This document shows positions 8,771 through 25,628 of a stretch of 64,000 bases of DNA, piece after piece. The notes below the pieces were generated by a model, which was not told the origin of the DNA, searched no databases, and saw only the letters and a list, made by a program, of their open reading frames with translations. The DNA comes from a bacterium (GTDB taxonomy: Bacteria; Patescibacteriota; Dojkabacteria; SC72), in assembly GCA_021107795.1 (NCBI GenBank), contig JAIOSB010000027.1, forward strand, positions 290 to 64,289. The letters run 5' to 3'. Numbering within the stretch: position 1 is the first letter of the stretch; the number at the start of each line of letters is the position of its first letter. A program made the translations under genes and the position numbers.

Positions 8771-9925
8771 TTATATTTCTTTGGCATATTTACCATATAC
8801 CCAACCCTCTTTATCTTGCCCAAAGAGTATTTGATACCAACCTTCCTCTTCTTTTACTACAATATATACCTCCCCATCGTTCGCAACATCTATTTTCTCG
8901 CAGCTATACCACCTACATTCCCTTATATTCACGAACCCAAACTCTGGAGAGACCATTTTTACTAATGTATTATCACCTTTGGTTACAGTAAACTCAACCA
9001 CAAATTCAGAGTCTGAGAAGACTTCCTTCTTGAATTTGTAAATCTCGAATGTTTCTACATTTTCTCCGGGTAATACCTTAGGATCTAACTTAAATGTCAT
9101 CTCTATACTTTCTCCTGGTAGTACATATCTGTCAGAAGAAATATGTGTTGGTTTACTAAAACTGTCCCACTCCCCATTAAGAGCATATATACTTTCTTTA
9201 GAATCTTTCACTGATATATATATTGGGTATTTATCAGAAAGCCATACAAAGTCATTTCCATTCTTTATAGTTACTTTAACTTGCAGTGTATTCCCTATCT
9301 CTACAGCCTCTTCATATTCTACACTCTCAATCTCAGCTACATACTCCAAGTGTTCTCTCTCACTAACCTTCCATTCTTCTAGGCTATCACCAATTGATGA
9401 CTTAAACAGGTTGTTGGATTCCACTAGCTCAAGTTTTGAGAGAGTGGCTTCTGATTCTACGATATTGAAAGAATGGCTGTCATATTGAGTAATTCCATAT
9501 TTGTGAGATAGGTCATTCGCAAGTTCTAGAATGGAGGATTTTGCTTTACTACTTACTTGTGCATTATTCGATAGATATGCTACTACAATATATTTTGCAT
9601 CTGTAAGTTTTAAAGTATCTACATTTTGTGTACTGAATATATCTCCATTTTCATCAATTGCGTAGTGGAAAGGTATATTTCCTAGTTTCAGTTTTGTAAT
9701 TGAGTAGTAATATGTTACATCAAGGTAATCTTCTGTACTTAGGTTTAAGGTGTCGTAACTTCCCTCAACTTGCGTAAAGAGGATTTTAGTTGGTTGTTGG
9801 TATTGATATTCTACACCAGCGACTAGAGAAGTATCAAAATCGGAGTATGATTCTTCATATCCTAATATTGGAGTAGTAAATATTGCAAGGAAAAGGATTG
9901 TTAGTAAGATATTTTTAATTTTCAT
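8771..9925 (-). CDS. Exported protein: degenerate amidase_2/PGRP-like domain + Ig-like domain + C-terminal SH3b
   Basis: Signal peptide from ATG 9925. NIPFHYAIDENGDIF resembles the amidase DIGYHFLID motif. The C-terminal VNIREC..EEGWYQI..EGWVYGKY is SH3b-like. Confidence 0.65.
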   Translation of the reverse strand: MKIKNILLTILFLAIFTTPILGYEESYSDFDTSLVAGVEYQYQQPTKILFTQVEGSYDTLNLSTEDYLDVTYYYSITKLKLGNIPFHYAIDENGDIFSTQNVDTLKLTDAKYIVVAYLSNNAQVSSKAKSSILELANDLSHKYGITQYDSHSFNIVESEATLSKLELVESNNLFKSSIGDSLEEWKVSEREHLEYVAEIESVEYEEAVEIGNTLQVKVTIKNGNDFVWLSDKYPIYISVKDSKESIYALNGEWDSFSKPTHISSDRYVLPGESIEMTFKLDPKVLPGENVETFEIYKFKKEVFSDSEFVVEFTVTKGDNTLVKMVSPEFGFVNIRECRWYSCEKIDVANDGEVYIVVKEEEGWYQILFGQDKEGWVYGKYAKEI

Positions 9926-9940
9926 ATCACATTGTACCAA

Positions 9941-10882
9941 TTATTCTACACTTTTGACATATTCAGGATCAATTGCATTCATGAATCCTACAAAAGGTAC
10001 ACTAAAGAGTTCTTTTTCATATTCAACATCACATACTCCTGAGATTTCGTAGGAGTAGTATAGGTAGTTTTGATTACAATTGACAAAGTAAAGGACTGGT
10101 TCAACCGTATTGATAGAACATTTTTCATATTTTAATTCCACATCCATTGTCTCATATGAAAACTCGTCAACTTCTATCATTCCAGTTGCATCAATGGTTA
10201 TACTTTTAGGATATTGAGGAGAGGAGAGATATAATTCTAAAACATTGGTTTCCGCTATCATGGGGACTATATATTCCGATTTCTCAATTTGTGCTAGTAA
10301 TACTCTCGCAGTACTTAAATATCCGTTTGTTAAATAGAAATAGTCAGAGCTACCCGAGCCTACTTTCACCTCTTTTTCATCGATAATTCTATTAACCCTA
10401 TACATCCTAAAATTTTCTCCTTCGTCTATGATAGGGGTAGTATATTTAATTGAAGTGTCTAAGTAAGTCGATATGAATTCTTCTATGGTGCCAAATCTTA
10501 TCGCTTCAGGATATTTCGTAAGATTTATCATAAGGACTGTAGTGTCAATATCATATCTTAATACCTCCGCATTATCTTTCTCCCATTTTACAAAATTCAT
10601 ATCAGAGGTCTTTTGCAAACTACTATCTATTTCAAATGCAAATTGGTCTAGATATTCTGGGATTGTGTTAGATTTACAAATATAGAGGGGGGAATCTCCT
10701 GATTCAAGTTCCACATCTATTCTAAGATTGTATTCCTTGTAATCACTGAGGTAGGGATTTGCATCTACTAGCTCACTTTCTAATACGTTTGGCTGGAGTA
10801 AAGAGTAAAGAAGGAATATTCCTGCAAGAAGCATTGTTACTACACCTACCACTATTAAGATTTTTAATGTTTTTTTATTCAT
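9941..10882 (-). CDS. Membrane-anchored hypothetical protein
   Basis: 313-aa ORF, N-terminal TM helix, tightly packed in the operon. Confidence 0.75.
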   Translation of the reverse strand: MNKKTLKILIVVGVVTMLLAGIFLLYSLLQPNVLESELVDANPYLSDYKEYNLRIDVELESGDSPLYICKSNTIPEYLDQFAFEIDSSLQKTSDMNFVKWEKDNAEVLRYDIDTTVLMINLTKYPEAIRFGTIEEFISTYLDTSIKYTTPIIDEGENFRMYRVNRIIDEKEVKVGSGSSDYFYLTNGYLSTARVLLAQIEKSEYIVPMIAETNVLELYLSSPQYPKSITIDATGMIEVDEFSYETMDVELKYEKCSINTVEPVLYFVNCNQNYLYYSYEISGVCDVEYEKELFSVPFVGFMNAIDPEYVKSVE

Positions 10883-10897
10883 AATTTTTATTAATTA

Positions 10898-13807
10898 TTA
10901 AGGACGACAAGGTGGACATTTTGATTCTGATTGAACTCCATTTACACAACCCATATCCACTAAGAAAGCGATAGGGTCAATATATTGACCGTTATGTGTT
11001 ATTGTAAGGTGTACATGAGCTCCTGTCCAGCAATAGAAAACCCCATTCTTATTAGGCCTGGTTGTCCCCAAAGGATCATCAGCAACTATCTCAGCTGCAT
11101 ATTGGTAGATATATGCGACTGGCTCACCAGCTTTGTAGTTACGACCATTTCCTGGAGGTATTAGTTTGGTATGCATGAGATTAAACACATTTCCCTGACC
11201 ATCACTGAACTCTATATTCCACCCAGTAAAACCACCGTCAGTACATCTCCATGCAGCCATGCTTGATAGTTTTGCTGTACAGGTAGAGGTGTCACAATAT
11301 TGTGGAGCGAAGAAAAACTTCATTCCTGCTAAGTCTACTGGGTATAGATTTGTAATATTCTTGTGAGAACACTTTGTATTACTAAATCCCTGAGTACAAC
11401 GATATTTGACATCACCAAATGGACAGCTAGAATTGGTTGGTGCAGGGATATTGATAGGAGGAGGAACAAAGTTACCACTAGAATACAGATAGCCAGAGCT
11501 AAATCCTCCATATCCTCCAAAACCTTTATTTTCGTATATGGTACCTGGTATTTCTCTAGAATATGAATCTACTGAGGCCCTATTGCTATACTCACTTGAA
11601 GCTCCAATTAACAATATTAGTCCAAATACCCCGACAAAAGCATAAACAATTACCTTTATCGACAACTTCGTAACTCCTTCCATAACCCAAGCTACTACCA
11701 CTGTCACGGCTGTACCCAAAGGACCTGCAATTGCAGTACCTGCAAGACCAAATGCTGCGACAATACCTTGAGATATAGCACTTGATAAGGCAGCTCCTCC
11801 TGTTGCCTTCCATGATGTCAATAAAGCCATAGCAGCTTTGTCTTTTGTAAAGAATTTAAGCTTAGAGAGAACAGAGAATACACCCTTTCTTATACCCGTT
11901 TGTACTTTCCCCAAGGTTTTTTCTTGAAATAGACTCAACATCCTTGCAGGTGTGCTAAATATAGCTGTAACTTTAGACCATTGTTCAAGTGCATTTGATA
12001 TTTTCTCAGCTTTAAAAAATTTTTTAGCAAAAGCACTGTTTTCATCCCCTAAACCTTTTAGAACATAGCCCAATATATTTCTGTATTTAGGTTCTTTGGC
12101 AAGCAATTGGATTTGTTCCGTAGAATTAAGTTTTTTGTATTTTTTATAAAATTTCCAGAATTTAGGATCTTGCAATTCTTTGAATACTCCAGACTTAACA
12201 CTCCACATTTTCTTGATTTCTATTTTTTTATTATCTGCCACCCATGCAAACCCTTCTCCTGTAAACATAGATTTTACCCAAGTTGCTGGGTTCATATAGT
12301 AAAATCGAACCATACCATCGTTGTATGCATCTCTTAAATTTCGCTTATATGAAATCTCTGCTGATTTTGATTTCACAAATTCTACTTTATTCCACTTCCC
12401 CTTGCCAATTAATATTGTACCCGCATTATCTACTGGGCAGCCATAATATCCTTTAATAGGGTTGTAGAAATCCCCATTGAGAATAGCTTCAATTCCTCCT
12501 GGTCCAAAAGTCTGTTTCACCCCATAATAAAGACCCTCAGCTGCTCCAATTCCACTCCACAATTGAACACTATTCAAAGATCTTCTCGTCGATCTTAATT
12601 GTTTAATATTCTTTTGAGCTACAGATATCTCAGCTCTCTTCTGTGATTTTGACAATTTGCCATAATCTATAAGATTACTACCTGTACCAAATGTCTTCCC
12701 ACTTCTAATAGCTTTTAATCGGTCTCTTAACTCTTCCTCGTTAGATCGGATATTGCTCTTTGCTCTCTTCAATTTAAAAAGTATTCCCTCATCTTTACTT
12801 CCATCAAGACTCTCTGCTCCCTTCATAGCCCTAGCATCGAGAGTGTCATACTTTTTCCATAACTCTAAGATATTATTCGAACTTTCTAGCTTATTATATT
12901 CCACCAATTCTTTTGCTGTTAGTTGAGACTTCGTCCTGTTACCTAACAAATCGTTTTGCCTTTCTTCAAACTCCAGACCTAAAAGGCTCCTAAATGTTTC
13001 AGCACTAGAAATTGTGTCGGTAATCTTATCTATATTATCTTGAGTGTCTTCCCACCGTTTACTATCCGTTTTCTTGTTCAAATTCTTCAAAGAGGCTTCT
13101 AATGCATTAATACCTTCCATACCATTAAGAGAATTAATCTGATTGGTTAACTTCTCCTTCAGCTCCTTTCCTTTCCTTGTATTTTCATCCACCTTGTTCT
13201 TTCTTGCAATTAATTTTCTAACGTCAGTCCTACTCACATATCCATCTTTTCTTAATTCTTCAGAGGCTCGTACAATCCATTGCCTATCTCTAGGACTTCC
13301 CGAATCTTGGGCTGCCTGTCCTACTGCTCTCTCAAGGGTATTTTTAAGATCCCCATACCCCTCGAATAGCCCCATCTTTTTGGCATATGTACTCCCTGCT
13401 AAATATCTCATAGCCTCACCAGCCCATCTGATATTCTCCATTTTAGATATGGTTTTGTTTGTCTCAAAGAGTTTGTCTATGAATTCATCAGGCTTCTCGA
13501 AGAAATCGGGTAACCCACTTGCTGTCAGCTTGACTACAGGTATACGACTAGTCTGTACTCCCACTTTGATAGTCGGATCAACCAGTCCTTGCATAGCTCC
13601 TAGGAATTGATCTCCCACAAACATCCCTGGCATAGCCAATGCATCTACCAAGGTTTGTACATACTCAGAACTTGCTTGACTATCTGCTGTTGGTGGAGGT
13701 CTTACTGGTTTCCTTTGCTCTGGAGGTAATTCAGATTGTTCCAGAACAAAACCTAGGATATCTGATACAGATGATATTGTTTTATCCTTACCCTTATATC
13801 CAGCCAT
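10898..13807 (-). CDS. Large membrane protein with C-terminal M23-peptidase-like domain
   Basis: Basic/coiled N-terminal region, Gly/Ala-rich TM segments, C-terminal TQGF..H..VDL..LMH..GEPVA..TGAHVHL..IDP. Confidence 0.7.
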   Translation of the reverse strand: MAGYKGKDKTISSVSDILGFVLEQSELPPEQRKPVRPPPTADSQASSEYVQTLVDALAMPGMFVGDQFLGAMQGLVDPTIKVGVQTSRIPVVKLTASGLPDFFEKPDEFIDKLFETNKTISKMENIRWAGEAMRYLAGSTYAKKMGLFEGYGDLKNTLERAVGQAAQDSGSPRDRQWIVRASEELRKDGYVSRTDVRKLIARKNKVDENTRKGKELKEKLTNQINSLNGMEGINALEASLKNLNKKTDSKRWEDTQDNIDKITDTISSAETFRSLLGLEFEERQNDLLGNRTKSQLTAKELVEYNKLESSNNILELWKKYDTLDARAMKGAESLDGSKDEGILFKLKRAKSNIRSNEEELRDRLKAIRSGKTFGTGSNLIDYGKLSKSQKRAEISVAQKNIKQLRSTRRSLNSVQLWSGIGAAEGLYYGVKQTFGPGGIEAILNGDFYNPIKGYYGCPVDNAGTILIGKGKWNKVEFVKSKSAEISYKRNLRDAYNDGMVRFYYMNPATWVKSMFTGEGFAWVADNKKIEIKKMWSVKSGVFKELQDPKFWKFYKKYKKLNSTEQIQLLAKEPKYRNILGYVLKGLGDENSAFAKKFFKAEKISNALEQWSKVTAIFSTPARMLSLFQEKTLGKVQTGIRKGVFSVLSKLKFFTKDKAAMALLTSWKATGGAALSSAISQGIVAAFGLAGTAIAGPLGTAVTVVVAWVMEGVTKLSIKVIVYAFVGVFGLILLIGASSEYSNRASVDSYSREIPGTIYENKGFGGYGGFSSGYLYSSGNFVPPPINIPAPTNSSCPFGDVKYRCTQGFSNTKCSHKNITNLYPVDLAGMKFFFAPQYCDTSTCTAKLSSMAAWRCTDGGFTGWNIEFSDGQGNVFNLMHTKLIPPGNGRNYKAGEPVAYIYQYAAEIVADDPLGTTRPNKNGVFYCWTGAHVHLTITHNGQYIDPIAFLVDMGCVNGVQSESKCPPCRP

Positions 13808-13817
13808 ATATTTTTAT

Positions 13818-15266
13818 TTACTTTATTAATTTCCCTAACAATGGAATTCCGCCCAAAGCCTGTTTTGCAGCTTGTGCTGCATCCCCTGCATCTTTTGAGG
13901 TCGTAGGTGGTAGTAAAACTTTAGCGTATACATCTGCTTTAGAAGCTATAAAGATGACGAAGATTTGTAATACAAAAATTAATAATCCACCAAGCAAGTC
14001 TTGACTCTGATCAATTTGCGCTGTTGTTTGAGGAAGTGTGAGCTTATCCGGTCCTGGTAGCGATAAACCACCATCGCTTACAGCATAAAGAACTCCTGGG
14101 ATATTAAGAATTGCAAATGTAATCGGATATACTAACACATTTCTCATAATACTTTTCATCCAATTGATAAAACTTGCACTTTGACCTGGAATAGCTGACA
14201 TAGCAATTTGGAAAGGACCTGTTATTACAGCAATTAGAATACCAATATATGCCTTTATTAAAGTTAGAAAAACCTTAAAAACACCGACTGTCACTACAGC
14301 TAAAATAGCCAATACCAAGATTAATCCTACAAGTCCAACGACGACACCTGTAAGAGGGGCTGCAATAAATCCAACGACAACACCTATAGCTGCAGTTCCA
14401 CCAACAAGACCCAGTAACCCACCCTTACCTCCAAAGTCTGCAAATTGAGTCATTTCTTCAAAAAGGCCTTCCGGTGTAAACGCCCTAAATATACTACCCA
14501 AACTTTCCAGTGTAATAGGGTCACTATATTCACTACTACTAAAAATATCTACTAGAAGGACCATCATGAGCCCTCCAATATCTATTATCACTCCCGCTAT
14601 TGCAAAACTAAAGGTAACCCCTATTAACGCAAGAATAATGTTTGGTAGAGTATTCCCAAGAGTCACTAATGTCTGTCCTCCTAGTTTACTTCTAAACATG
14701 ATCATGAATCCAACAACTATCATGATTAATATGAAGAATACATAAGTAATATTCCTAACCTGTGACCATAATCCACTGATACCAGTATTAACCAACTCAT
14801 CATATCCTGAGTCAAATCCACTAGTTGTAATACTTGCATACACAGAACTATCTGCCTGATAACCAGGTACCCACTCTTCTGCCAAATGCGCATATACATT
14901 AACAAGAGGTTGTGATTCGTATAAAGCATATACTCCATCGGATGTCATACCATATATACCTCTTTTCATGTCAGGCGATATCGTATCTGAGTCCAACATT
15001 GCTTGATAGTCTGAAGATATTTCTGGTGCTAGATAAATAATTGCATTAACCACTGCGGTATTGGCACTAACAGCCTGTGACCTAGCAGAGTTATACTCAT
15101 CTCCCTCTGCCCCCTGCCCCACATTCACAGCTTCTACAGTAGATCCATATGATCCACTAAGGTCTAAACCTGTGTATTCTTGAGCATACGCATTAGTAGA
15201 TAAGAAGAAGAAAGCTATAACAAGTACTGACCAAAACAAATCTTTATTAAATCTATTTATTTTCAT
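13818..15266 (-). CDS. VirB6/TrbL-like polytopic membrane protein of CPR T4SS-like loci
   Basis: LWSQVRNITYVFFILIMIVVGFMIMFRSKLGGQTLVT..LPNIILALIGVTFSFAIAGVIID; multiple TM helices. Confidence 0.65.
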   Translation of the reverse strand: MKINRFNKDLFWSVLVIAFFFLSTNAYAQEYTGLDLSGSYGSTVEAVNVGQGAEGDEYNSARSQAVSANTAVVNAIIYLAPEISSDYQAMLDSDTISPDMKRGIYGMTSDGVYALYESQPLVNVYAHLAEEWVPGYQADSSVYASITTSGFDSGYDELVNTGISGLWSQVRNITYVFFILIMIVVGFMIMFRSKLGGQTLVTLGNTLPNIILALIGVTFSFAIAGVIIDIGGLMMVLLVDIFSSSEYSDPITLESLGSIFRAFTPEGLFEEMTQFADFGGKGGLLGLVGGTAAIGVVVGFIAAPLTGVVVGLVGLILVLAILAVVTVGVFKVFLTLIKAYIGILIAVITGPFQIAMSAIPGQSASFINWMKSIMRNVLVYPITFAILNIPGVLYAVSDGGLSLPGPDKLTLPQTTAQIDQSQDLLGGLLIFVLQIFVIFIASKADVYAKVLLPPTTSKDAGDAAQAAKQALGGIPLLGKLIK

Positions 15267-15290
15267 AGGATAATTAAAAAATATTAAATA

Positions 15291-16631
15291 TTACATCTTA
15301 TATACAGGATCTGTTCTATTCTCACTCTCCCATACATGAAAATTCATATAATCCATTCTATCAGGAAATACCTCCTGAGGCATATTATCATGTGACTGAA
15401 ATTCTAATTCTTGAGTAATATAGTCAATATCCCAAGCACAAGAAAGAGCCTTATTACCATATCCTCCAATATTTGCATAACAAGTTGTTAAGACATAAAT
15501 CTTCTGTGACTCATCAGCATTTGGAATTGAAAAACTTCCATTTCTTAACTTATTGAACTCCGTTACACACTTTCCATCAATACAATCTGCTTTACTACCC
15601 CAAGGAGACTCCATAATTACAACAATACTTGCAGTATTTATACAATTCTCATCTGCACCACTTATGCTAGAACACCTATCTGCATCAAAGATATTCATTA
15701 TTTCCTTAAAAAACGATATTACAATTTGCTTAAGACTTGGAGTACAACCTATCATCTCTGTATCTAAATCCATATTGATAAATGTAGTGTTCGTATCACA
15801 ATCATCTATACCATCATCTTCTTGCTCTGGAATATTTTCATAATATCCTGGATAATTCTGTGATTGACCCAATACATATGATCCAGACAAATATTTCTCT
15901 GGTGTCGGGTTAGAATAGTTTCTACAAGCTGCTCCACAATCATTAACTTGATACTTAGAGATAGAGATTTCACTTGTACCTGAGCCTTTGGCATTAGCAG
16001 TACCTTCAATGGAATAATTAATACCAAAAGATTTCGTTTTAGAAGCTTCCCCAGCATCTATAATAGCTTGTGTCTGAGTCTCTCCTGGGTACATATTCCC
16101 TGCAACCACTTCTTTATTAATCATCTCTCCCGCAGGTCTTAGTGTCCAGTGTTCAGTACCATCTTCTTCAGTAAATATTTGCCTAACAGATGAGTCCATA
16201 GTTGGAGATCCATTCAAAAGAGGTGGTACTTCGATACTAGTAAGAGAAATCGAAGCCTTTCTATCTACCATATCCCCTATACTCAGTTCTCTATCTTCTT
16301 TACCCATGTCCGCATCGAAAGAGAAAGTCCTAGCACATACTTTCTCGGAGGAATAGCTGTAGAAAGGAGTTACACATACATCCTGTTCTCCTAAAACCAT
16401 TCCTGGTTTAACCTCTCTAATCGGTTTGAAATTTTCATCTATTTCAAAGAACAAAGCTTGTTCCAATTGCCAGTCCTCTTCATTGGCCTCTACTTTCTCA
16501 CGAAGTACATACTCTTGAGTATCAGCTTGGATATGAGTAACCCTTTGTGTCTTGTTTATAACAAAAACCCCAAACAAAATAAGGAAAGATAAAAGAAGGA
16601 CAGGTTTTCGCGAATACAATTTCTTTGACAT
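15291..16631 (-). CDS. Exported Cys-rich hypothetical protein
   Basis: N-terminal signal/TM, paired Cys residues, acidic composition. Confidence 0.75.
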   Translation of the reverse strand: MSKKLYSRKPVLLLSFLILFGVFVINKTQRVTHIQADTQEYVLREKVEANEEDWQLEQALFFEIDENFKPIREVKPGMVLGEQDVCVTPFYSYSSEKVCARTFSFDADMGKEDRELSIGDMVDRKASISLTSIEVPPLLNGSPTMDSSVRQIFTEEDGTEHWTLRPAGEMINKEVVAGNMYPGETQTQAIIDAGEASKTKSFGINYSIEGTANAKGSGTSEISISKYQVNDCGAACRNYSNPTPEKYLSGSYVLGQSQNYPGYYENIPEQEDDGIDDCDTNTTFINMDLDTEMIGCTPSLKQIVISFFKEIMNIFDADRCSSISGADENCINTASIVVIMESPWGSKADCIDGKCVTEFNKLRNGSFSIPNADESQKIYVLTTCYANIGGYGNKALSCAWDIDYITQELEFQSHDNMPQEVFPDRMDYMNFHVWESENRTDPVYKM

Positions 16632-16669
16632 AGTACAATATACATCGAAAAGAAGATGTATTCAATTGA

Positions 16670-18283
16670 TTAATCTATAAGAATGCCATAATCAGAAAGT
16701 AATGGGATTGAACTGTATGCTGAATTACTTGAATCAGAGACAGAGACTTCTACTTCTTCAGAAACAGCTTCTCCAACAGTCATTTCTGTAGCTGAAGGGT
16801 TTGTGAAATATTTAGAACTAAAGTTAACGATATCATCATTACTTTTATCGAAATATCCGCCCTCTGCATCTCTTGCTCCACCAATTGTCAAAATCCAAGA
16901 CCCTTCACTATCTACTAAGGTAGATATCGGGTAGCTTGTACCACTAGAACCAATACCGTCATTGTCCGTAAAGGTTGCAACAACAAGAGCATTTTTATAA
17001 TCCACAACCTCAAGAATACCTACAATGGTCTCAAACTGTGGAGGGCTGGATTGTGTAGCAAAAGTTTTTACTTCACCTTCATATTCATATACATCTTCTC
17101 CCGAGTATATTTCAAAAAAGTATGTTGTCTCTGGTTGTAATTGTGCAATCTCAATACTATGCAAGAAATATTCTCCTTGAGACGCTATACCATCTCTCTC
17201 ATCTCTCCCTTTATTAGACAAATCTGATGTAGTAGTTCCATACATTACATAGCCTTGTTGTGATTCCTTAGAGAACCATATTATCGAACAACTAACATCC
17301 GTAAGATTTGTAATCATTACACTCTCTACTCCATATACCTCCGGTTGAGAAGGCACTACTCCACTATTTGATACCATATCAATCCAAGCTAAATCACTCT
17401 TAAGTTCGTATAGGTTATCGGGAGTTTCATCTTCAATTTTCTCTTCTTCTTCTACCACAGGTACTACATATGAGTCTTTTTCTTCAATTATCATATCAGG
17501 TTTTTCACCTTCTTCTGTAGCTACAAGTTTCGTAGCGTCAGAGATATAGGTATCATATGGACTTCCAAAGATTACAAGCGTTTCCGTTAGTTTCATACTA
17601 GAATCAAAGATTGTCCCATATTGTCCTTCTACCACACCTGCATTCCCAACACTTGACACTCCCAGTATTACTAAGTCTGTTGAGTCTAACAGTGTATACA
17701 TACTCTTATCCTCAATACTTCTTAACGATGAGAGATCCACTAACCAGTTCCCATTGCTAGATGGAACAGTTGCTACTGGGTATGTCGTTTTGTCCTTGGG
17801 GAATATATATATTAGGGCATCGTCATCACTTATATCAGAGAGTTCTCCATGTACGGGTGTAGGGGTTGGAATATCTGCACTAATATTGGCTGTAGTAAAA
17901 CTAAACTCTTCCCCTTCTATATCTGTGTACATATCTTCTCCTGATATGATTTTAAAATCATATTCTGTATTTGGTTCTAAACTTTGAATTTCAACGTAGT
18001 GAGTATTTCTCTTCTCATTTCCCCTCTTATCTATCACTGGATTTTTCTCAGTTCCATTGAGTACAGGGATTACCGACCCTATTACTTCACTTTCAGTAGT
18101 CCATGTTACTGTGATGGAATTGGTAGTAAGGTTTGCAAGTATTGCATCTTTGGGTTGTGTATTTACTCCTGCATTTGTAAACCATCGTGCACCACTGTAT
18201 ATGGCAAAGAGTGTAAGAGGAATACCTAGTACCAGCGTAATTATTGTAGTTAGTTGCTTCTTTTGGTATGGAGTTATGTACAT
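16670..18283 (-). CDS. Membrane-anchored protein with two FN3 (purple-acid-phosphatase-N-like) + beta-sandwich repeats
   Basis: Two repeats: NLTTNSITVTW..HYVEIQSLEPNTEY..NGNW and NLTDVSCSIIW..HSIEIAQLQPETTY..EGSW. Confidence 0.8.
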   Translation of the reverse strand: MYITPYQKKQLTTIITLVLGIPLTLFAIYSGARWFTNAGVNTQPKDAILANLTTNSITVTWTTESEVIGSVIPVLNGTEKNPVIDKRGNEKRNTHYVEIQSLEPNTEYDFKIISGEDMYTDIEGEEFSFTTANISADIPTPTPVHGELSDISDDDALIYIFPKDKTTYPVATVPSSNGNWLVDLSSLRSIEDKSMYTLLDSTDLVILGVSSVGNAGVVEGQYGTIFDSSMKLTETLVIFGSPYDTYISDATKLVATEEGEKPDMIIEEKDSYVVPVVEEEEKIEDETPDNLYELKSDLAWIDMVSNSGVVPSQPEVYGVESVMITNLTDVSCSIIWFSKESQQGYVMYGTTTSDLSNKGRDERDGIASQGEYFLHSIEIAQLQPETTYFFEIYSGEDVYEYEGEVKTFATQSSPPQFETIVGILEVVDYKNALVVATFTDNDGIGSSGTSYPISTLVDSEGSWILTIGGARDAEGGYFDKSNDDIVNFSSKYFTNPSATEMTVGEAVSEEVEVSVSDSSNSAYSSIPLLSDYGILID

Positions 18284-18390
18284 AGCTCTATATTACATTT
18301 ATTATTTCTATTAGACAATGGGGAGGGATCTTTGACGATGTGGATAATCGAGTTCATCTTTTATTCATAATCAATATGTAGAATATTAGT

Positions 18391-18879
18391 ATGAGTCAAG
18401 AGGATATTACATATGTATTTATAGATGCTCAGAATCTATATCTGGGTATAAGAGATCTAGGCTGGCATATTGATTATAGAAAACTCAATGTTTACCTGAA
18501 GGAAAAGTATCAAGCTCAATGTCTTTATATGTATATTGGATATCTGAAAGGAAATCAAAAGCTCTATACCAAACTTACACAGGCTGGTTTCGATATTATA
18601 TTCAAGGATACAGTGCGATATGGAAGAAACCGGGTTATTAAAGGTAACGTTGATGTAGATCTCACAGTAGATGTAATAAGAAAAGCATCCCTATACAACA
18701 AAGCCATTTTTATAAGTGCGGATGGGGATTTTTGTGCACTTTACAACTACCTTCTCAAAGAAAAAGGGAAAGAAATTTTAATACTAATCCCCAATATTTA
18801 TAAATATTCAAAGTTACTATTAAAATATAAGGGTAGACTAAGATTTATGAATGATTTGAGAGCCAAGATTGGGGAATAA
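18391..18879 (+). CDS. NYN-domain (LabA/DUF88, PIN-like fold) putative ribonuclease
   Basis: YVFIDAQNL, KGNVDVDL and FISADGDF, with the acidic catalytic residues retained. Confidence 0.9.
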   Translation: MSQEDITYVFIDAQNLYLGIRDLGWHIDYRKLNVYLKEKYQAQCLYMYIGYLKGNQKLYTKLTQAGFDIIFKDTVRYGRNRVIKGNVDVDLTVDVIRKASLYNKAIFISADGDFCALYNYLLKEKGKEILILIPNIYKYSKLLLKYKGRLRFMNDLRAKIGE

Positions 18880-18933
18880 AAAGGGGGAGTGTTGCTTGTA
18901 AGACGAAACTTACAACCTTCCCTCCCTCGTGAT
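18878..18933 (-). ncRNA. Candidate ~55-nt structured small RNA convergent on the NYN gene (strand not certain)
   Basis: Nested stems GGGAG/CTCCC (18885-89/18922-26) and TTGTAAG/CTTACAA (18896-902/18909-15). On the minus strand it follows a consensus promoter and ends in a U-run (18882-18878). Confidence 0.55.
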
Positions 18934-18938
18934 AGCTC

Positions 18939-18967
18939 ATTATAATAAATATCTACGATAATTACAA
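18939..18967 (-). promoter_or_regulatory. Sigma70-type promoter pointing into the NYN 3' element
   Basis: TTGTAA (18967-18962), 17 bp, TATAAT (18944-18939). No minus-strand ORF directly downstream. Confidence 0.6.
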
Positions 18968-19014
18968 CACGAGCAACACTAATTCATATCATGTTCACAA
19001 TCAGAAAAGGCTTT

Positions 19015-19329
19015 TTACTTCTTCATCCCTGAGAGAAACTCTGTAAGCGTAGTTAGTAATCCTGATATTTGTCTAACAGGTTGTATTACTGCTTGGTTTA
19101 CTTCTTCTACAGTCCCTTTTGTAGTACTTACCATTGCTTGAACATCATCAAGTATCACATTCGTCTTAATTAGTGTTTTGTTTGCTTCTTCAATGATCTT
19201 TGTACTACCCTGAACTACTCCTCTGGTATCTTTGGTAACCATACCTAGTTGGTAGAGTATGAATGTAAAGAATGCTACAGGTATCCCCATAAGTATCATC
19301 CAGTATATTGATGGTATTGTGTCGAACAT
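19015..19329 (-). CDS. Small membrane-anchored coiled-coil protein (DUF948/YoxC-like)
   Basis: N-terminal TM helix followed by heptad-like repeats. Confidence 0.65.
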   Translation of the reverse strand: MFDTIPSIYWMILMGIPVAFFTFILYQLGMVTKDTRGVVQGSTKIIEEANKTLIKTNVILDDVQAMVSTTKGTVEEVNQAVIQPVRQISGLLTTLTEFLSGMKK

Positions 19330-19375
19330 ATGTATAGTGTTTTAATTAATCTATACCTTAGAATATCAGATATCC

Positions 19376-22300
19376 CTAGTTATTACCACATTGACCATCT
19401 AATTCACCATCTGGATGCCATATTAATGATTTGCATGTACTGTCTTCTGGTTGAAAGCTAGATATTCTCACAAAGTAGCCATTTGATGTAGTTATTGGAT
19501 AATCAAAACCATATTCTGTTCCCTCAGAGACTTGCAACCCCTCAAACATACCTTTTGATACAGGCCACCATGTTATATTATCTGCAGTTAAGCCTGAGAT
19601 TCTATTCACTGAGTCAATGAGTGTACGTGCTGTAAATGCTTTAGTATACCCACTTACTCCGATTAAGTTCCAACCAGGTATAAAACTTACAGGTACATTC
19701 GTATTAATATCAAATCCAGGAATAGGTATTCTACTATTCCTAGTAGCTACTATCGCATATCCAAAGCCTGGTAGTAGAGGGAAGTCAGAGCCGGCAGGAG
19801 TTCCTGATTCTGTAGACTTACTCATAATCCCTCCCTTCCACGATCCGTTGGAGAAGTATGTTATCTGACTGATTACTTCAAATTGGCTATTAGCTTCTTC
19901 CAATAGTTGTTCTGCAGTGTAGGATTCCCCGACATTCAGTGCAGGATAGAAATCGAATGATACTAGGTTTAAGCCCTCTTTCAGCACTATATCATACGCA
20001 TTAGATACTTGATTGACACTTAGTTCCAGCACACTAGATGATACTAAGTAGTCTCCATTTGCCACATCAAATTTCCCGTCATTGTTTATATCTTTATAAT
20101 ATATATATTTATAGTCAGCATTATAGTATTGCACGACGTTCTCACTATCTGGTCTAATTACTTCATAGTAACCATCTTTAGTCACACTTAAAAACAGCTC
20201 TTCCGTCTCTTGGGCCGACACTTTAGGTGCTGAGAAAGAGGCGATTTCCTGGAGGATATTATCCAAATTTAATGTACTAGTTTCAGAACATTCTCCAAAC
20301 GGTACAATTTTATATCCAGCTACACATCCTTTACCAACTTCTTGTTTTTGTTTTACTCCAAACCCACTATCACAACAGACATACCCTTCTTTAACATACT
20401 CTGTATCGAATGTAGCTGTACCACCTCCTGTTTTTATAACTGTATTAAAACTCTCACCATATATGGTTTCTAAATCAGCTTTCTGACCACAGGCATTAAA
20501 TTGAACCTCTATATCCCCTTTTGAGGTCAGGCAGTAATATTGAAGACCCTCAATTTCCTCCAAAGGTAGTAACCAACGATCGTCAAAAGAATCTTTATTA
20601 AAATCTCCGAGACTTTGCTTTGTTGGAGTCGCATAAGGAGTCTCGACTGATGGCCCAGAATAGTAATAATAATCTCCATCATCATCCAGATATATGTAAT
20701 CTCCATTCCAAGTAGGACTACCAACGTCATTTGCTATCACAAGATCCTCCGTTATAGTCTCTCTTAAAAAGTACGAGGCAGAGACACACTCTTTATTACC
20801 GCACTCATCACAATTGATAATATTTCCTTCATCCTTATTGAAACAGTACATCTCGTTTTCCAAATTAACAGATTTCACTACCTTATCAGCACAATACTCA
20901 TAAAAGTCTACCGTTTCATACTCACATTGACCAATTCCAGTTGGGTAGTAATTAGGGATATATACATAGCTAGATTCCTTTTTTACATTATGACAACACT
21001 CTAAGGCAATCACTTCTCCACTATCATTAGTTACAAGAGGTGCGAAATCTTCTGCAGACAGATTCCCTGATAATGAAGATTCCTCACCCTCCTCATTTGA
21101 GACGCTAGGTTGGCACTGAAACCAGAAGGATTCGCAGGGTGTGCCGTAATCGTCCTGGCTGGGACAGTTTATGAGATCATAGTCTGTAGTATAGTCTGAG
21201 CAGCGGAGTTTTCCCTCCTCCTCTTGATCTACACTTTCCTTCGGTTTAGGAGAAGGTAGTCCAGGATTATTACCCATACACTCGCTTTTCTCTTTATCCC
21301 AATAACAACCTCCATAATAATTCTCATTACAAACAGTTTCTGTAGTATAACCACTACAACCAGTTATCTCAGGACCCTCTACTACAAGTTCTATCTTGTC
21401 CTCAAGAAATCCCATAATCTCAGCACTCCCCTGCAAATCTCCAATAATATCTTCATATTCCGACGAATCTACAACGTCGACATTACCTGATACACTGTTT
21501 TTAACAAGTTCTCCATCTAATAAAGTATAGAGATTCCCTGCAGCATCTACTACTTGATCCTCTCCTATAACCTTCTTTTCTCCATCAACCTCAACCATCT
21601 GCCTACCCCTCTCCATACACCCCGCAGGCTTTGGACAAAGAGCTTGCAATCGGATATTAAATTGGCGAACTCCATTCCATAGACAAGTCTTGTAACAAGG
21701 ACTTGTTGGTGCACAACCACCAGCAAGAATAGGTCCATAAGAGACTGTTTTCCCTTCACTGTCCTCACACCTTGCCTCATCCCATGCAGCATTGACATAA
21801 GGTATAAAGGATTCTAATAAATCCTCTGCATTATTCTCAAAATCTATATCCTCTTCACTATTACCCAAGATACTCTCTACAGGAATATCATCTGTTCCAA
21901 AGGTTATCATATAGCACTGCTTTGGAGTAAAAGACTCATATTGATAACAAACCTCACCATTCATACCATTTATATCATCAAATACAGAACCATTTAAATC
22001 TCTAAAAGCCCCCTTATCAATACTCCACCCACCCTCACTATTAGTAGAAGCTGAAAGTAAATTAGAAATCAAAACATTACTCTCATCTACTACCCCTACA
22101 AAAACCATAGAATCTTTAGAGTCATCCTCATACAACAATCCTCCCGTATCAAGCTTCATACCATAAATCTTCCCATACATTGGATTAGGGACCACCATCT
22201 CGACAACATCCTGTATAACAGTTGTAACAGAAAACTCACTGAGAGTATCAAAAGCATATTCATATGAGTTTGTCTTACTACTAGACCATAGGAGTGAACC

Positions 22301-22708
22301 ATTTGATAATACAAAATTGTAAATCTTTCCTTCTTCAAGACCTGAAACAGTAACATGATGAACGTAATATTTATTATTCTTTACCTTGTATTCATTCAAA
22401 CAGTCAATACTATCTACACCACTCTCAAGTGCATCATTATTCAAATCTTCAACACAACTGGCCTGGGCTAAAACAACATCTCTATCATCATATGCAAACC
22501 TAACACCATTACTCCAGTACATTACAAATCCCTGTGTAGGCTGATGTGTTAGCCAGGATATAGTTGCAGAAGATGCAGTAATATTGGTAACCCTGACATC
22601 ATATGCTTGGAGCTTATTGCCCTGTACAATATAGTAAACTAGATAAGAGAAGGATATTAGCACAATAACTGTTAAGAGTCCCAATCCAAACATCTTGCTT
22701 CTTTTCAT
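19376..22708 (-). CDS. Large surface protein: N-terminal TM + FN3, Cys-rich central modules, DxNxDG motif, C-terminal GxNL repeats
   Basis: VTNITASSATISW..HHVTVSGLE; many Cys clusters; YKDINNDGKFD; LKEGLNLVSF and FIPGWNLIGV. Start ATG 22708 preferred over TTG 22714. Confidence 0.8.
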   Translation of the reverse strand: MKRSKMFGLGLLTVIVLISFSYLVYYIVQGNKLQAYDVRVTNITASSATISWLTHQPTQGFVMYWSNGVRFAYDDRDVVLAQASCVEDLNNDALESGVDSIDCLNEYKVKNNKYYVHHVTVSGLEEGKIYNFVLSNGSLLWSSSKTNSYEYAFDTLSEFSVTTVIQDVVEMVVPNPMYGKIYGMKLDTGGLLYEDDSKDSMVFVGVVDESNVLISNLLSASTNSEGGWSIDKGAFRDLNGSVFDDINGMNGEVCYQYESFTPKQCYMITFGTDDIPVESILGNSEEDIDFENNAEDLLESFIPYVNAAWDEARCEDSEGKTVSYGPILAGGCAPTSPCYKTCLWNGVRQFNIRLQALCPKPAGCMERGRQMVEVDGEKKVIGEDQVVDAAGNLYTLLDGELVKNSVSGNVDVVDSSEYEDIIGDLQGSAEIMGFLEDKIELVVEGPEITGCSGYTTETVCNENYYGGCYWDKEKSECMGNNPGLPSPKPKESVDQEEEGKLRCSDYTTDYDLINCPSQDDYGTPCESFWFQCQPSVSNEEGEESSLSGNLSAEDFAPLVTNDSGEVIALECCHNVKKESSYVYIPNYYPTGIGQCEYETVDFYEYCADKVVKSVNLENEMYCFNKDEGNIINCDECGNKECVSASYFLRETITEDLVIANDVGSPTWNGDYIYLDDDGDYYYYSGPSVETPYATPTKQSLGDFNKDSFDDRWLLPLEEIEGLQYYCLTSKGDIEVQFNACGQKADLETIYGESFNTVIKTGGGTATFDTEYVKEGYVCCDSGFGVKQKQEVGKGCVAGYKIVPFGECSETSTLNLDNILQEIASFSAPKVSAQETEELFLSVTKDGYYEVIRPDSENVVQYYNADYKYIYYKDINNDGKFDVANGDYLVSSSVLELSVNQVSNAYDIVLKEGLNLVSFDFYPALNVGESYTAEQLLEEANSQFEVISQITYFSNGSWKGGIMSKSTESGTPAGSDFPLLPGFGYAIVATRNSRIPIPGFDINTNVPVSFIPGWNLIGVSGYTKAFTARTLIDSVNRISGLTADNITWWPVSKGMFEGLQVSEGTEYGFDYPITTSNGYFVRISSFQPEDSTCKSLIWHPDGELDGQCGNN

Positions 22709-22784
22709 ATTCAAAACCCTAAGATTATTACTCTAAAGATATAAAGAAACAGCCAATATGTCAATATAATGATATAATCCTCCT

Positions 22785-24621: not shown

Positions 24622-24951
24622 TTATATCTTTTTAGACAGTTTTTCTATTCTTTTAAAATACCAGTCCGTATTTATTCCCCATTTATTTGCCTCTTCACAC
24701 ATTCTAATCGCATCTTTATAACGTTGCTCATATTCAAGTAACATAATTGAGCGTTGAAAAGCAGGAACCGTTTTAACCATAGAATATCCATTCCGCCTGT
24801 CACTTATTGCCATTTGCCAGAATAGCTCTTGACCCTTCATACAAAGCCCCCAGAATTCATCTCTCAACTTTTGAGAGAAACCTTCGTGTTTCAAATTCCT
24901 CCATTTATTTTCTATTTCATCCAAATTGTCAAAATATGTTTGGTGTTCCAT
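24622..24951 (-). CDS. Hypothetical helical (TPR-like) protein, accessory
   Basis: 109-aa ORF (PAFQRSIMLLEYEQRYKDAIRMCEEA..KRIEKL), co-oriented with the DUF4145 gene. Confidence 0.65.
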   Translation of the reverse strand: MEHQTYFDNLDEIENKWRNLKHEGFSQKLRDEFWGLCMKGQELFWQMAISDRRNGYSMVKTVPAFQRSIMLLEYEQRYKDAIRMCEEANKWGINTDWYFKRIEKLSKKI

Positions 24952-24971
24952 AGTTCCATAATTCCCTTTAT

Positions 24972-25628
24972 CTATTTGTTTGGTGGTTTATTAGCAGATT
25001 TTAATTTCTCATCTAATGCCTTCTTTTTCAATTTTGTTAGAGTAGGTTGGACATAATAAAAATCAAATAATTGTTCAAGAACATCTAATATCCACTCAGT
25101 TTCTCCCTTTTCTACATCTATAATTTGACCACTATTAGTGGATTTTATAGGATGTGATGCGAAATTCCCAATATTTCTGACAGCATCAATAGCTTCACTG
25201 AGATGGCTTGGCAGTGTCTCCATAGCTTTCTCAATTTCTTGACTAAGATTATTTTTTGATATACCTTGTTCATGCAACATACTCTGCAAACATCTTCTCG
25301 CAAGTGCTGCTGATGCTTTTGAACTTAAAGGTTCTATTAACGAAGCCTCATTGAAATCCTGACTTATATCTGTTGGAACTTCTTTTGGAGCAGATGGTCT
25401 CATTGCACCTAAGGGACAAATCATTTGTTCACCAAATAATATTATAATTTCTTGACAAGCAGTACACCTGCAAGTTCGAAGCAATTTGGTTTTATCTTCC
25501 ACCCCATTTATTAACTCTCTATTAGGAAAATCGTAATTATGTGGGTACTTATAATATTGAACACCTTCAAAACGATTTGAATTTTTACAATATGGACATA
25601 TTCCTGTCTGATTTCTTGCAACTACCAT
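24972..25628 (-). CDS. DUF4145-domain protein with N-terminal Zn-ribbon
   Basis: CPYC..CTAC, then ASAALARRCLQ..L..EI..AVRNIGNFASH (HEPN-like RxxGNxxxH). Confidence 0.85.
   Translation of the reverse strand: MVVARNQTGICPYCKNSNRFEGVQYYKYPHNYDFPNRELINGVEDKTKLLRTCRCTACQEIIILFGEQMICPLGAMRPSAPKEVPTDISQDFNEASLIEPLSSKASAALARRCLQSMLHEQGISKNNLSQEIEKAMETLPSHLSEAIDAVRNIGNFASHPIKSTNSGQIIDVEKGETEWILDVLEQLFDFYYVQPTLTKLKKKALDEKLKSANKPPNK

Follow-up and report, generated by a model that had tools for sequence, protein, structure and literature searches.

In Patescibacteriota, very small host-dependent bacteria, a gene for a small NYN-domain protein (LabA/COG1432-like, with a PIN fold) and a predicted RNA of about 55 nucleotides (nt), which faces this gene from a promoter of its own, form a mobile cassette of about 600 bp. 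The cassette considered here lies in a stretch of 64,000 nt from a Dojkabacteria genome (assembly GCA_021107795.1, contig JAIOSB010000027.1, positions 290 to 64,289), hereafter called the window. The pair is real and widespread, and no description matching it was found in the literature searched, whose coverage did not extend to subscription papers and bioRxiv supplements. We propose, with about an even chance of being right, that the RNA binds and restrains the predicted ribonuclease (RNase) as an RNA antitoxin would, in a manner resembling type III toxin-antitoxin (TA) systems but with another fold and another gene layout.

The locus and its convergent promoter

The NYN open reading frame (ORF; 18391-18879, plus strand) is flanked by the minus-strand genes 16670-18283 and 19015-19329, and the cassette breaks into a minus-strand block of secreted and membrane genes (8771-22714). 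A hairpin is found at the NYN stop codon, and the minus strand carries TTGTAA-17-TATAAT (18967-18939), which matches the sigma-70 consensus at 10 of 12 positions. A sequence-only reading of the window had interpreted these features as a small RNA with its own promoter. At this single locus they do not exceed chance: 8 promoter-like sites are found versus 10.4 +/- 3.6 in shuffles, the folding of the hairpin on the minus strand gives z = -1.67, and a terminator scan of the locus does not call it. It is the comparison across homologs, rather than this locus alone, that confirms promoter and hairpin as genuine sequence features.

The homologs sampled came from 162 loci, 153 of them with 200 nt downstream and 146 left after the removal of near-copies. 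A promoter facing the gene and matching at least 10 of the 12 positions of the generic sigma-70 consensus is found at 74% of these 146 loci. The corresponding figures are 8% for the gene strand, 4% for dinucleotide shuffles and 3% for the sequences that follow 574 ORF ends of the host genome. Two later sets, mostly drawn from the phylum sample, behave in the same way, with a facing promoter at 32/47 loci (0/47 on the other strand) and at 23/39 loci (3/39; one of the 40 loci could not be parsed). Both spacing and strand are fixed in all three sets. The conservation that had been predicted for the antisense -10 box (TATAAT, 18939-18944 in the window; -35 box TTGTAA, 18962-18967) is thus borne out.

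When the host genome was scanned for a promoter followed by a leader and a hairpin, eight matches were obtained, only two of which have the form of the cassette; these follow the two small NYN genes of the genome. The second of these genes (L008, G000:C24:11269-11787) has a subtype-B RNA with its own convergent promoter and adjoins a tRNA-like stretch. Furthermore, a third and longer NYN paralog (L006, G000:C23:1461-1976) is accompanied by a different hairpin and by a convergent TTGAAA-17-TATAAT promoter.

Structure and subtypes of the predicted RNA

The 141 elements recognized belong to about six subtypes of 50-65 nt that share one plan, consisting of a leader AUCAC(G/C)A, an outer stem, an internal loop, an inner stem, a terminal loop and a U-tract. 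Of 172 element-gene pairings, 170 have the RNA downstream of the gene and encoded on the other strand. In the window, the predicted RNA belongs to subtype A (18878-18933, minus strand, from a putative start site). It would begin with the single-stranded 5' leader AUCACGA (18927-18933) and continue with a hairpin (18885-18926) made up of stem P1 (18922-18926 with 18885-18889), a 6x6 purine-rich internal loop (18916-18921 with 18890-18895), stem P2 (18909-18915 with 18896-18902) and a terminal loop (18903-18908). The U-tract after P1 (18878-18882) overlaps the NYN stop codon and is the predicted intrinsic terminator of the RNA.

The leader corresponds to the TCGTGAT end whose conservation had been anticipated. 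It is conserved across subtypes, and in some tandem arrays the inner unit retains it too. The logos of the main sets are partly circular, since the score or pattern used to anchor them favours the leader; with no such bonus, the leader follows the best promoter in 33 of 47 loci. The expected covariation of the stems was likewise found. In subtype A (17 sequences), both sides change in 9 of 13 pairs, with a score that is reached by 0/500 shuffles and exceeds that of slid controls; relatedness alone may let unstructured sequences pass such a test, and the MAFFT alignment of the subtype-A inner stem is not perfectly in register. Covariation is similar in subtypes B, C and D (41 sequences, 0/500 shuffles). 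A nested hairpin fits both groups, no search for pseudoknots having been made.

The terminal loop, which the earlier reading expected to be conserved, varies freely in subtype A; UUCG, UUUG, UCCG or UCUG (on the RNA strand) occupies it in 77 of the 141 elements, in other subtypes. Along with the leader, subtype A keeps its internal loop (RRAAG opposite CNACA). Read on the RNA strand, the internal loops in general are rich in purines, with tandem purines in subtypes A and B and UAA facing GAN in C and D; by eye, the latter matches the UAA/GAN label given to hook-turn motifs of the RNA 3D Motif Atlas in the available part of PMC12034103. The RNA subtype follows the protein tree (20 changes versus 88.4 in shuffles), a pattern that kinship alone can yield. 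A further subtype with a conserved CCUAAGG arm (L273-L278) is tied to a single long-branch NYN clade. Searches against Rfam gave at best E 2.1 in the window, far under the gathering thresholds, and only tRNAs in 12 loci spanning most subtypes. The suggestion that the RNA could guide the nuclease found no support: there is no variable spacer, and no genome match of at least 13 nt occurs on either strand outside its own locus.

An element acting at the DNA level or as a terminator would explain some of these features, as a terminator for a convergent neighbour or as a recombination signal, the promoter match being incidental. The A-tract often doubles as lysine codons and about 11% of the loci have flanking direct repeats, hence the unit moves. 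This explanation appears very improbable, given the fixed spacing and strand of the promoter in the three sets, as well as the G-U pairs and purine-rich internal loops, which are most easily understood as RNA of the promoter strand. Furthermore, at 29 of 48 loci the following gene runs in the same direction as NYN, leaving no convergent gene to terminate. A plain bidirectional terminator was rejected, as the earlier reading had supposed, since a U-tract comes after the stem at 101 of 117 loci when the RNA strand is read, and at 2 of 117 for the mRNA strand. An integron attC site, judged by eye against its consensus, was also rejected.

The NYN protein

The gene of the window encodes a predicted ribonuclease of 162 amino acids (aa) with a net charge of +10, which is also the family median. 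Its sole Pfam match is NYN (PF01936, E 1.4e-16, 61.7 bits versus a cut-off of 24.2). An AlphaFold model (predicted local distance difference test, pLDDT, 94.5) was compared with known structures by Foldseek, which returned NYN/PIN folds, 2qip (VPA0982; template modelling score 0.83) coming first and the MARF1 NYN domain next. The fold lacks a helical insert after strand 2 and fits the COG1432-like group. Residues D12, D88, D111 and D113 are invariant in 16 sequences and present in 100% of 158. Judging by its fold, the protein would be an RNase. NCBIfam gave nothing useful and the protein atlas only NYN clusters. It should be noted that the phylogenies used here are quick trees, in which the window protein sits on a long branch.

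A homodimer is predicted with a score of 0.71 (best control 0.17), at least 93% agreement in contacts between runs and a pLDDT of at least 85. Among structures already solved, 20 of 30 dimers and 1 of 23 monomers attain this mark, and the result could stem from the predictor having memorized known PIN dimers. The predicted interface takes in active-site positions 88 and 113.

The start of the gene appears weak in most homologs: a promoter matching at least 10 of 12 positions is found in 12 of 128, and a Shine-Dalgarno-like word in 11 of 128. In the window, a predicted -10 box TAGAAT (18379-18384, plus strand) lies 6 nt 5' of the ATG, and the mRNA is likely leaderless and weakly promoted.

Mobility and distribution

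The site occupied in the window, between a gene for an Fn3 protein and a DUF948-like gene, is free of NYN in 27 of the 28 relatives in which both flanks were found. The 28th, from the same genus (G106), carries a truncated NYN gene with stops, beside which the RNA is intact and covarying and the promoter present. In some relatives (L195 and L204), another inserted sequence is found at this same site, which may therefore be an insertion hot spot. No target-site duplication above control (score 18) was seen at the window locus.

Among the homologs, the cassette is found at many unrelated sites. Flanking direct repeats occur at 10-12% of the loci versus 0.1-0.3% in controls. Several of them adjoin the NYN start and the -35 box, beginning just past the latter, which is the right edge of the mobile unit in the window; this indicates that the promoter belongs to the moving unit. 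At L115, L059, L111, L096, L024 and L129, the direct repeats flanking the cassette reach 20-70 nt, suggesting integration by homology, and no mobilising enzyme was seen. A preference for tRNA sites is not clearly enriched (11 of 53 loci versus 27 of 179 host windows).

Within the phylum, 83 of the 301 genomes sampled contain homologs, with several copies per genome. In Elusimicrobiota, they occur in 10 of 151 genomes, the element being recognized by eye in 10/10 and by pattern in 8/10. The only homolog among 401 Pseudomonadota genomes is the seed itself, and two loci whose Gammaproteobacteria label is doubtful in view of genomes of only 0.7 and 1.0 Mb (L002 and L004, from G407 and G409) were excluded from the range outside the candidate phyla radiation. 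Phage records gave no match and plasmids only distant LabA-like matches, while five loci were found on viral contigs, two of them close and with the element, three distant and without it. A group of longer NYN proteins (194-255 aa; L165-L170, L172-L175, L177-L179 and L183, most of 15 such loci) has the same layout with another leader and another loop; 18 of 24 loci gave a match, and three phage NYNs lack the layout. At three loci of this group, an orphan subtype-C RNA is also located behind the NYN RNA.

Elsewhere in the window (24622-25628, minus strand), an orphan ORF of 109 aa and a DUF4145 protein, between a methyltransferase-like gene and pnp, possibly represent another accessory insertion.

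Gene loss, orphan RNAs and multiple units

The NYN gene is often lost or broken while the RNA persists, and this pattern gives indirect support to the TA nature proposed by the sequence-only reading, whose two-part arrangement of a nuclease and an RNA with its own convergent promoter also stands. Subtype-A matches in 120 genomes (n=19; 11 inspected and 8 placed by coordinates) include 12 after an intact NYN, one after a broken NYN, five orphans with promoter and one doubtful case. In the same way, among 57 matches to subtypes B, C and D, the 17 that were not beside a full NYN match were fetched and proved to be 10 full orphans, three with gene remnants, two at contig ends and two with NYN. RNA and promoter stand beside a broken NYN at L186, L329, L335, L338, L264, L266 and L267, and a broken gene beside an intact RNA was found in 4 of the 10 Elusimicrobiota cases. 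Four pairs of orphans, located at shared or related sites, show 85-96% identity in the RNA versus 47-82% in the flanks, suggesting that the RNA functions in trans.

Of 151 loci, 18 carry more than one RNA unit (two or three). Six of these are tandem arrays behind one promoter; in the others, each unit has its own promoter and often belongs to another subtype.

Proposed mechanism and competing explanations

The NYN gene would be expressed weakly from its mostly leaderless start, and the RNA from a near-consensus promoter, so that the RNA would be in excess. The predicted basic dimer would bind the leader and the internal loop of the RNA and thereby be blocked. If RNA synthesis were halted or the cassette lost, free NYN would cut cellular RNA, which would make the cassette addictive. 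The gene would then often lose its function, the RNA remaining. PIN folds are known to be held by protein antitoxins.

Several observations weigh against restraint of a toxic nuclease by direct RNA binding. Some concern the RNA itself: G-U versus A-C counts (85 versus 56) favour the RNA strand only modestly, and the stem lies within the NYN coding sequence at 96 of 141 loci. As the NYN mRNA has no terminator of its own, pairing between sense and antisense RNA would be hard to avoid. The RNA could then act as a type I-like antisense regulator that pairs with the NYN mRNA at its 3' end, the nuclease being kept low by RNase III or by transcriptional collision, perhaps together with protein binding. 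In favour of this, the host genome encodes RNase III, and duplexes of -35 to -45 kcal/mol are computed between subtypes, versus -111 to -118 for own pairs. RatA is described as pairing at the 3' end of its toxin mRNA in the available part of PMC2887945. We consider the antisense explanation rather unlikely. A cis-encoded RNA is complementary to the mRNA whatever its letters, yet those of the leader and internal loop are conserved. Furthermore, orphans without a cis gene are still conserved, and extra units of another subtype sit beyond the first promoter. The type I toxins covered by this same part of PMC2887945 are typically hydrophobic and shorter than 70 aa.

Other difficulties come from NYN proteins that live without the RNA. 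Fifteen homologs with intact acidic residues have no RNA beside them, and they are distributed over 4 to 7 separate places on the tree. One group, being near-identical across a genus, looks like a tolerated gene. In genomes G031, G033 and G037 an orphan RNA is found elsewhere in the genome; in G026 and G039, no RNA match was obtained with either of two models. By surface charge, RNA-less NYNs seemed less basic than RNA-bearing ones in a first set, but the two overlapped widely in a second, the RNA-bearing L027 and L031 being neutral. Some RNA-less NYNs bear long low-complexity tails, and the RNA-less lineages (L076 and L283-L286, genus g14; L287, L288 and L293; L269, L270 and L272) are candidate tamed nucleases. 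The orphan RNAs, for their part, could be slowly decaying debris, the gene being the larger target for deletion. Finally, hardly any of the 100 genes neighbouring 53 loci are alike; most are housekeeping genes, and no neighbour is common to the loci. Only 3 of the 100 are defence-like (restriction-modification, AbiEii or DUF3800), and PADLOC matched no defence-system model with its partner genes, its output being limited to a generic NYN model and a weak match to HEC-09. The defence role that had been suggested is thus not supported.

These observations would suit a non-toxic ribonucleoprotein or regulator, in which the RNA either serves a mild RNase as cofactor, decoy or favoured substrate or acts on a host factor, the pair being a dispensable accessory without addiction. 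RNA-less intact NYNs are tolerated in several lineages, orphan RNAs are conserved by themselves, a defence-island context is lacking, and the terminated RNAs associated with DUF3800, protein-linked and of unknown role in the main text of PMC5737381, offer a precedent. Such an explanation is nevertheless unlikely: the patchy spread in the phylum with several copies per genome, the frequent nonsense and deletion alleles beside intact RNA, and the strong promoter of the RNA versus the weak one of the gene all fit a toxin better.

Relationship with known systems

As far as the accessible portion of PMC5086642 describes them, the type III TA systems ToxIN, CptIN and TenpIN resemble the cassette in combining an RNase-type protein with a short structured RNA, present in excess (an excess that is only predicted here). 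Repeats of RNA units, typical of these systems with their pseudoknotted, toxin-processed antitoxin, occur at a minority of the loci (tandem at 6/151). The differences concern gene order and both partners: a single operon with promoter, repeats, terminator and toxin in the known systems, versus an RNA located downstream, on the opposite strand and with its own promoter; furthermore, the RNA is here usually single, forming a hairpin with an internal loop in which no pseudoknot was seen, none having been looked for, and the protein has a NYN/PIN fold and is not of the ToxN family.

AbiF/Abi_2 with AbiFr or RCd22 (PMC12373285 and PMC12737573, in part) is a nuclease neutralised by a cis-encoded hairpin RNA, which acts through bulge nucleotides and is active in trans too. 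By analogy, it offers the best working model for the NYN-RNA pair. The same sources describe AbiF as a HEPN protein, RCd22 as upstream and co-transcribed, and abiF loci as preferentially located near defence and mobile genes. RF03085, the abiF motif, matches neither the window nor the 12 loci, and the HEPN domain is absent from the Pfam result of the window NYN.

In txpA/RatA (PMC2887945, in part), as in the cassette, a convergent small RNA overlaps the gene at its 3' end. The protein of the cassette differs from the small membrane peptides of type I systems, being a soluble nuclease fold of 162 aa, and loop letters and orphan RNAs are conserved here. Complementarity to the NYN mRNA is provided by the convergent overlap, the 3' end of this mRNA being a prediction. 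By its size and anatomy, with a free 5' tail and a terminator hairpin, the cassette RNA resembles Sok of the hok/Sok system. Nucleases exist as exceptions among type I toxins, for example SymE (PMC2887945, in part). As judged from sequence, the cassette therefore stands outside the type III and AbiF systems in both toxin fold and gene order, and has the txpA/RatA layout without the small membrane toxin.

The DUF3800-I to XI, drum and skipping-rope RNAs (main text of PMC5737381) also comprise several terminated motifs per protein family, sometimes on the other strand, UAA being common. They go with another protein family; NYN and LabA do not appear in that main text, and no Rfam match was found here. 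At one locus (L243:2143-2982), a DUF3800 gene is located immediately behind the NYN-RNA cassette.

For the protein itself, the fold and acidic active-site residues are shared with NYN.COG1432 (LabA-like), VPA0982 (2qip), the MARF1 NYN domain and HEC-09. The LabA-like NYN family is given as of unknown function in the available part of PMC5499597, which mentions no RNA partner. HEC-09, a distant NYN candidate with an extra N-terminal domain, gave no phage protection according to the part available of 10.1101/2024.01.29.577857, another point that does not favour the proposed role. In the portion consulted of the Fremin and Bhatt supplement (PMC8040213), five rows have a NYN within 5 kb, all from human-microbiome taxa and mostly LabA_like_C or OST-HTH, seen as annotations and not as sequences.

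Biological significance

More broadly, the cassette may represent an undescribed and widespread class of RNA-protein TA systems, in which a convergent 55-nt RNA with a promoter of its own holds an RNase of the PIN/NYN fold and orphan RNAs of several subtypes are collected as immunity against incoming cassettes; this broader proposal is tentative and falls somewhat short of an even chance. It suggests that orphan RNAs could serve as a memory of immunity. If the RNA binds the protein, the pair would enlarge the range of RNA antitoxins by a new fold and gene layout, and searches built on upstream repeats would miss such an RNA. The proposed mechanism would also account for the spread of a one-gene nuclease between the housekeeping genes of very small genomes. 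It provides a testable function for a large family of LabA-like NYN proteins of unknown role, found in over a quarter of the sampled Patescibacteria genomes.
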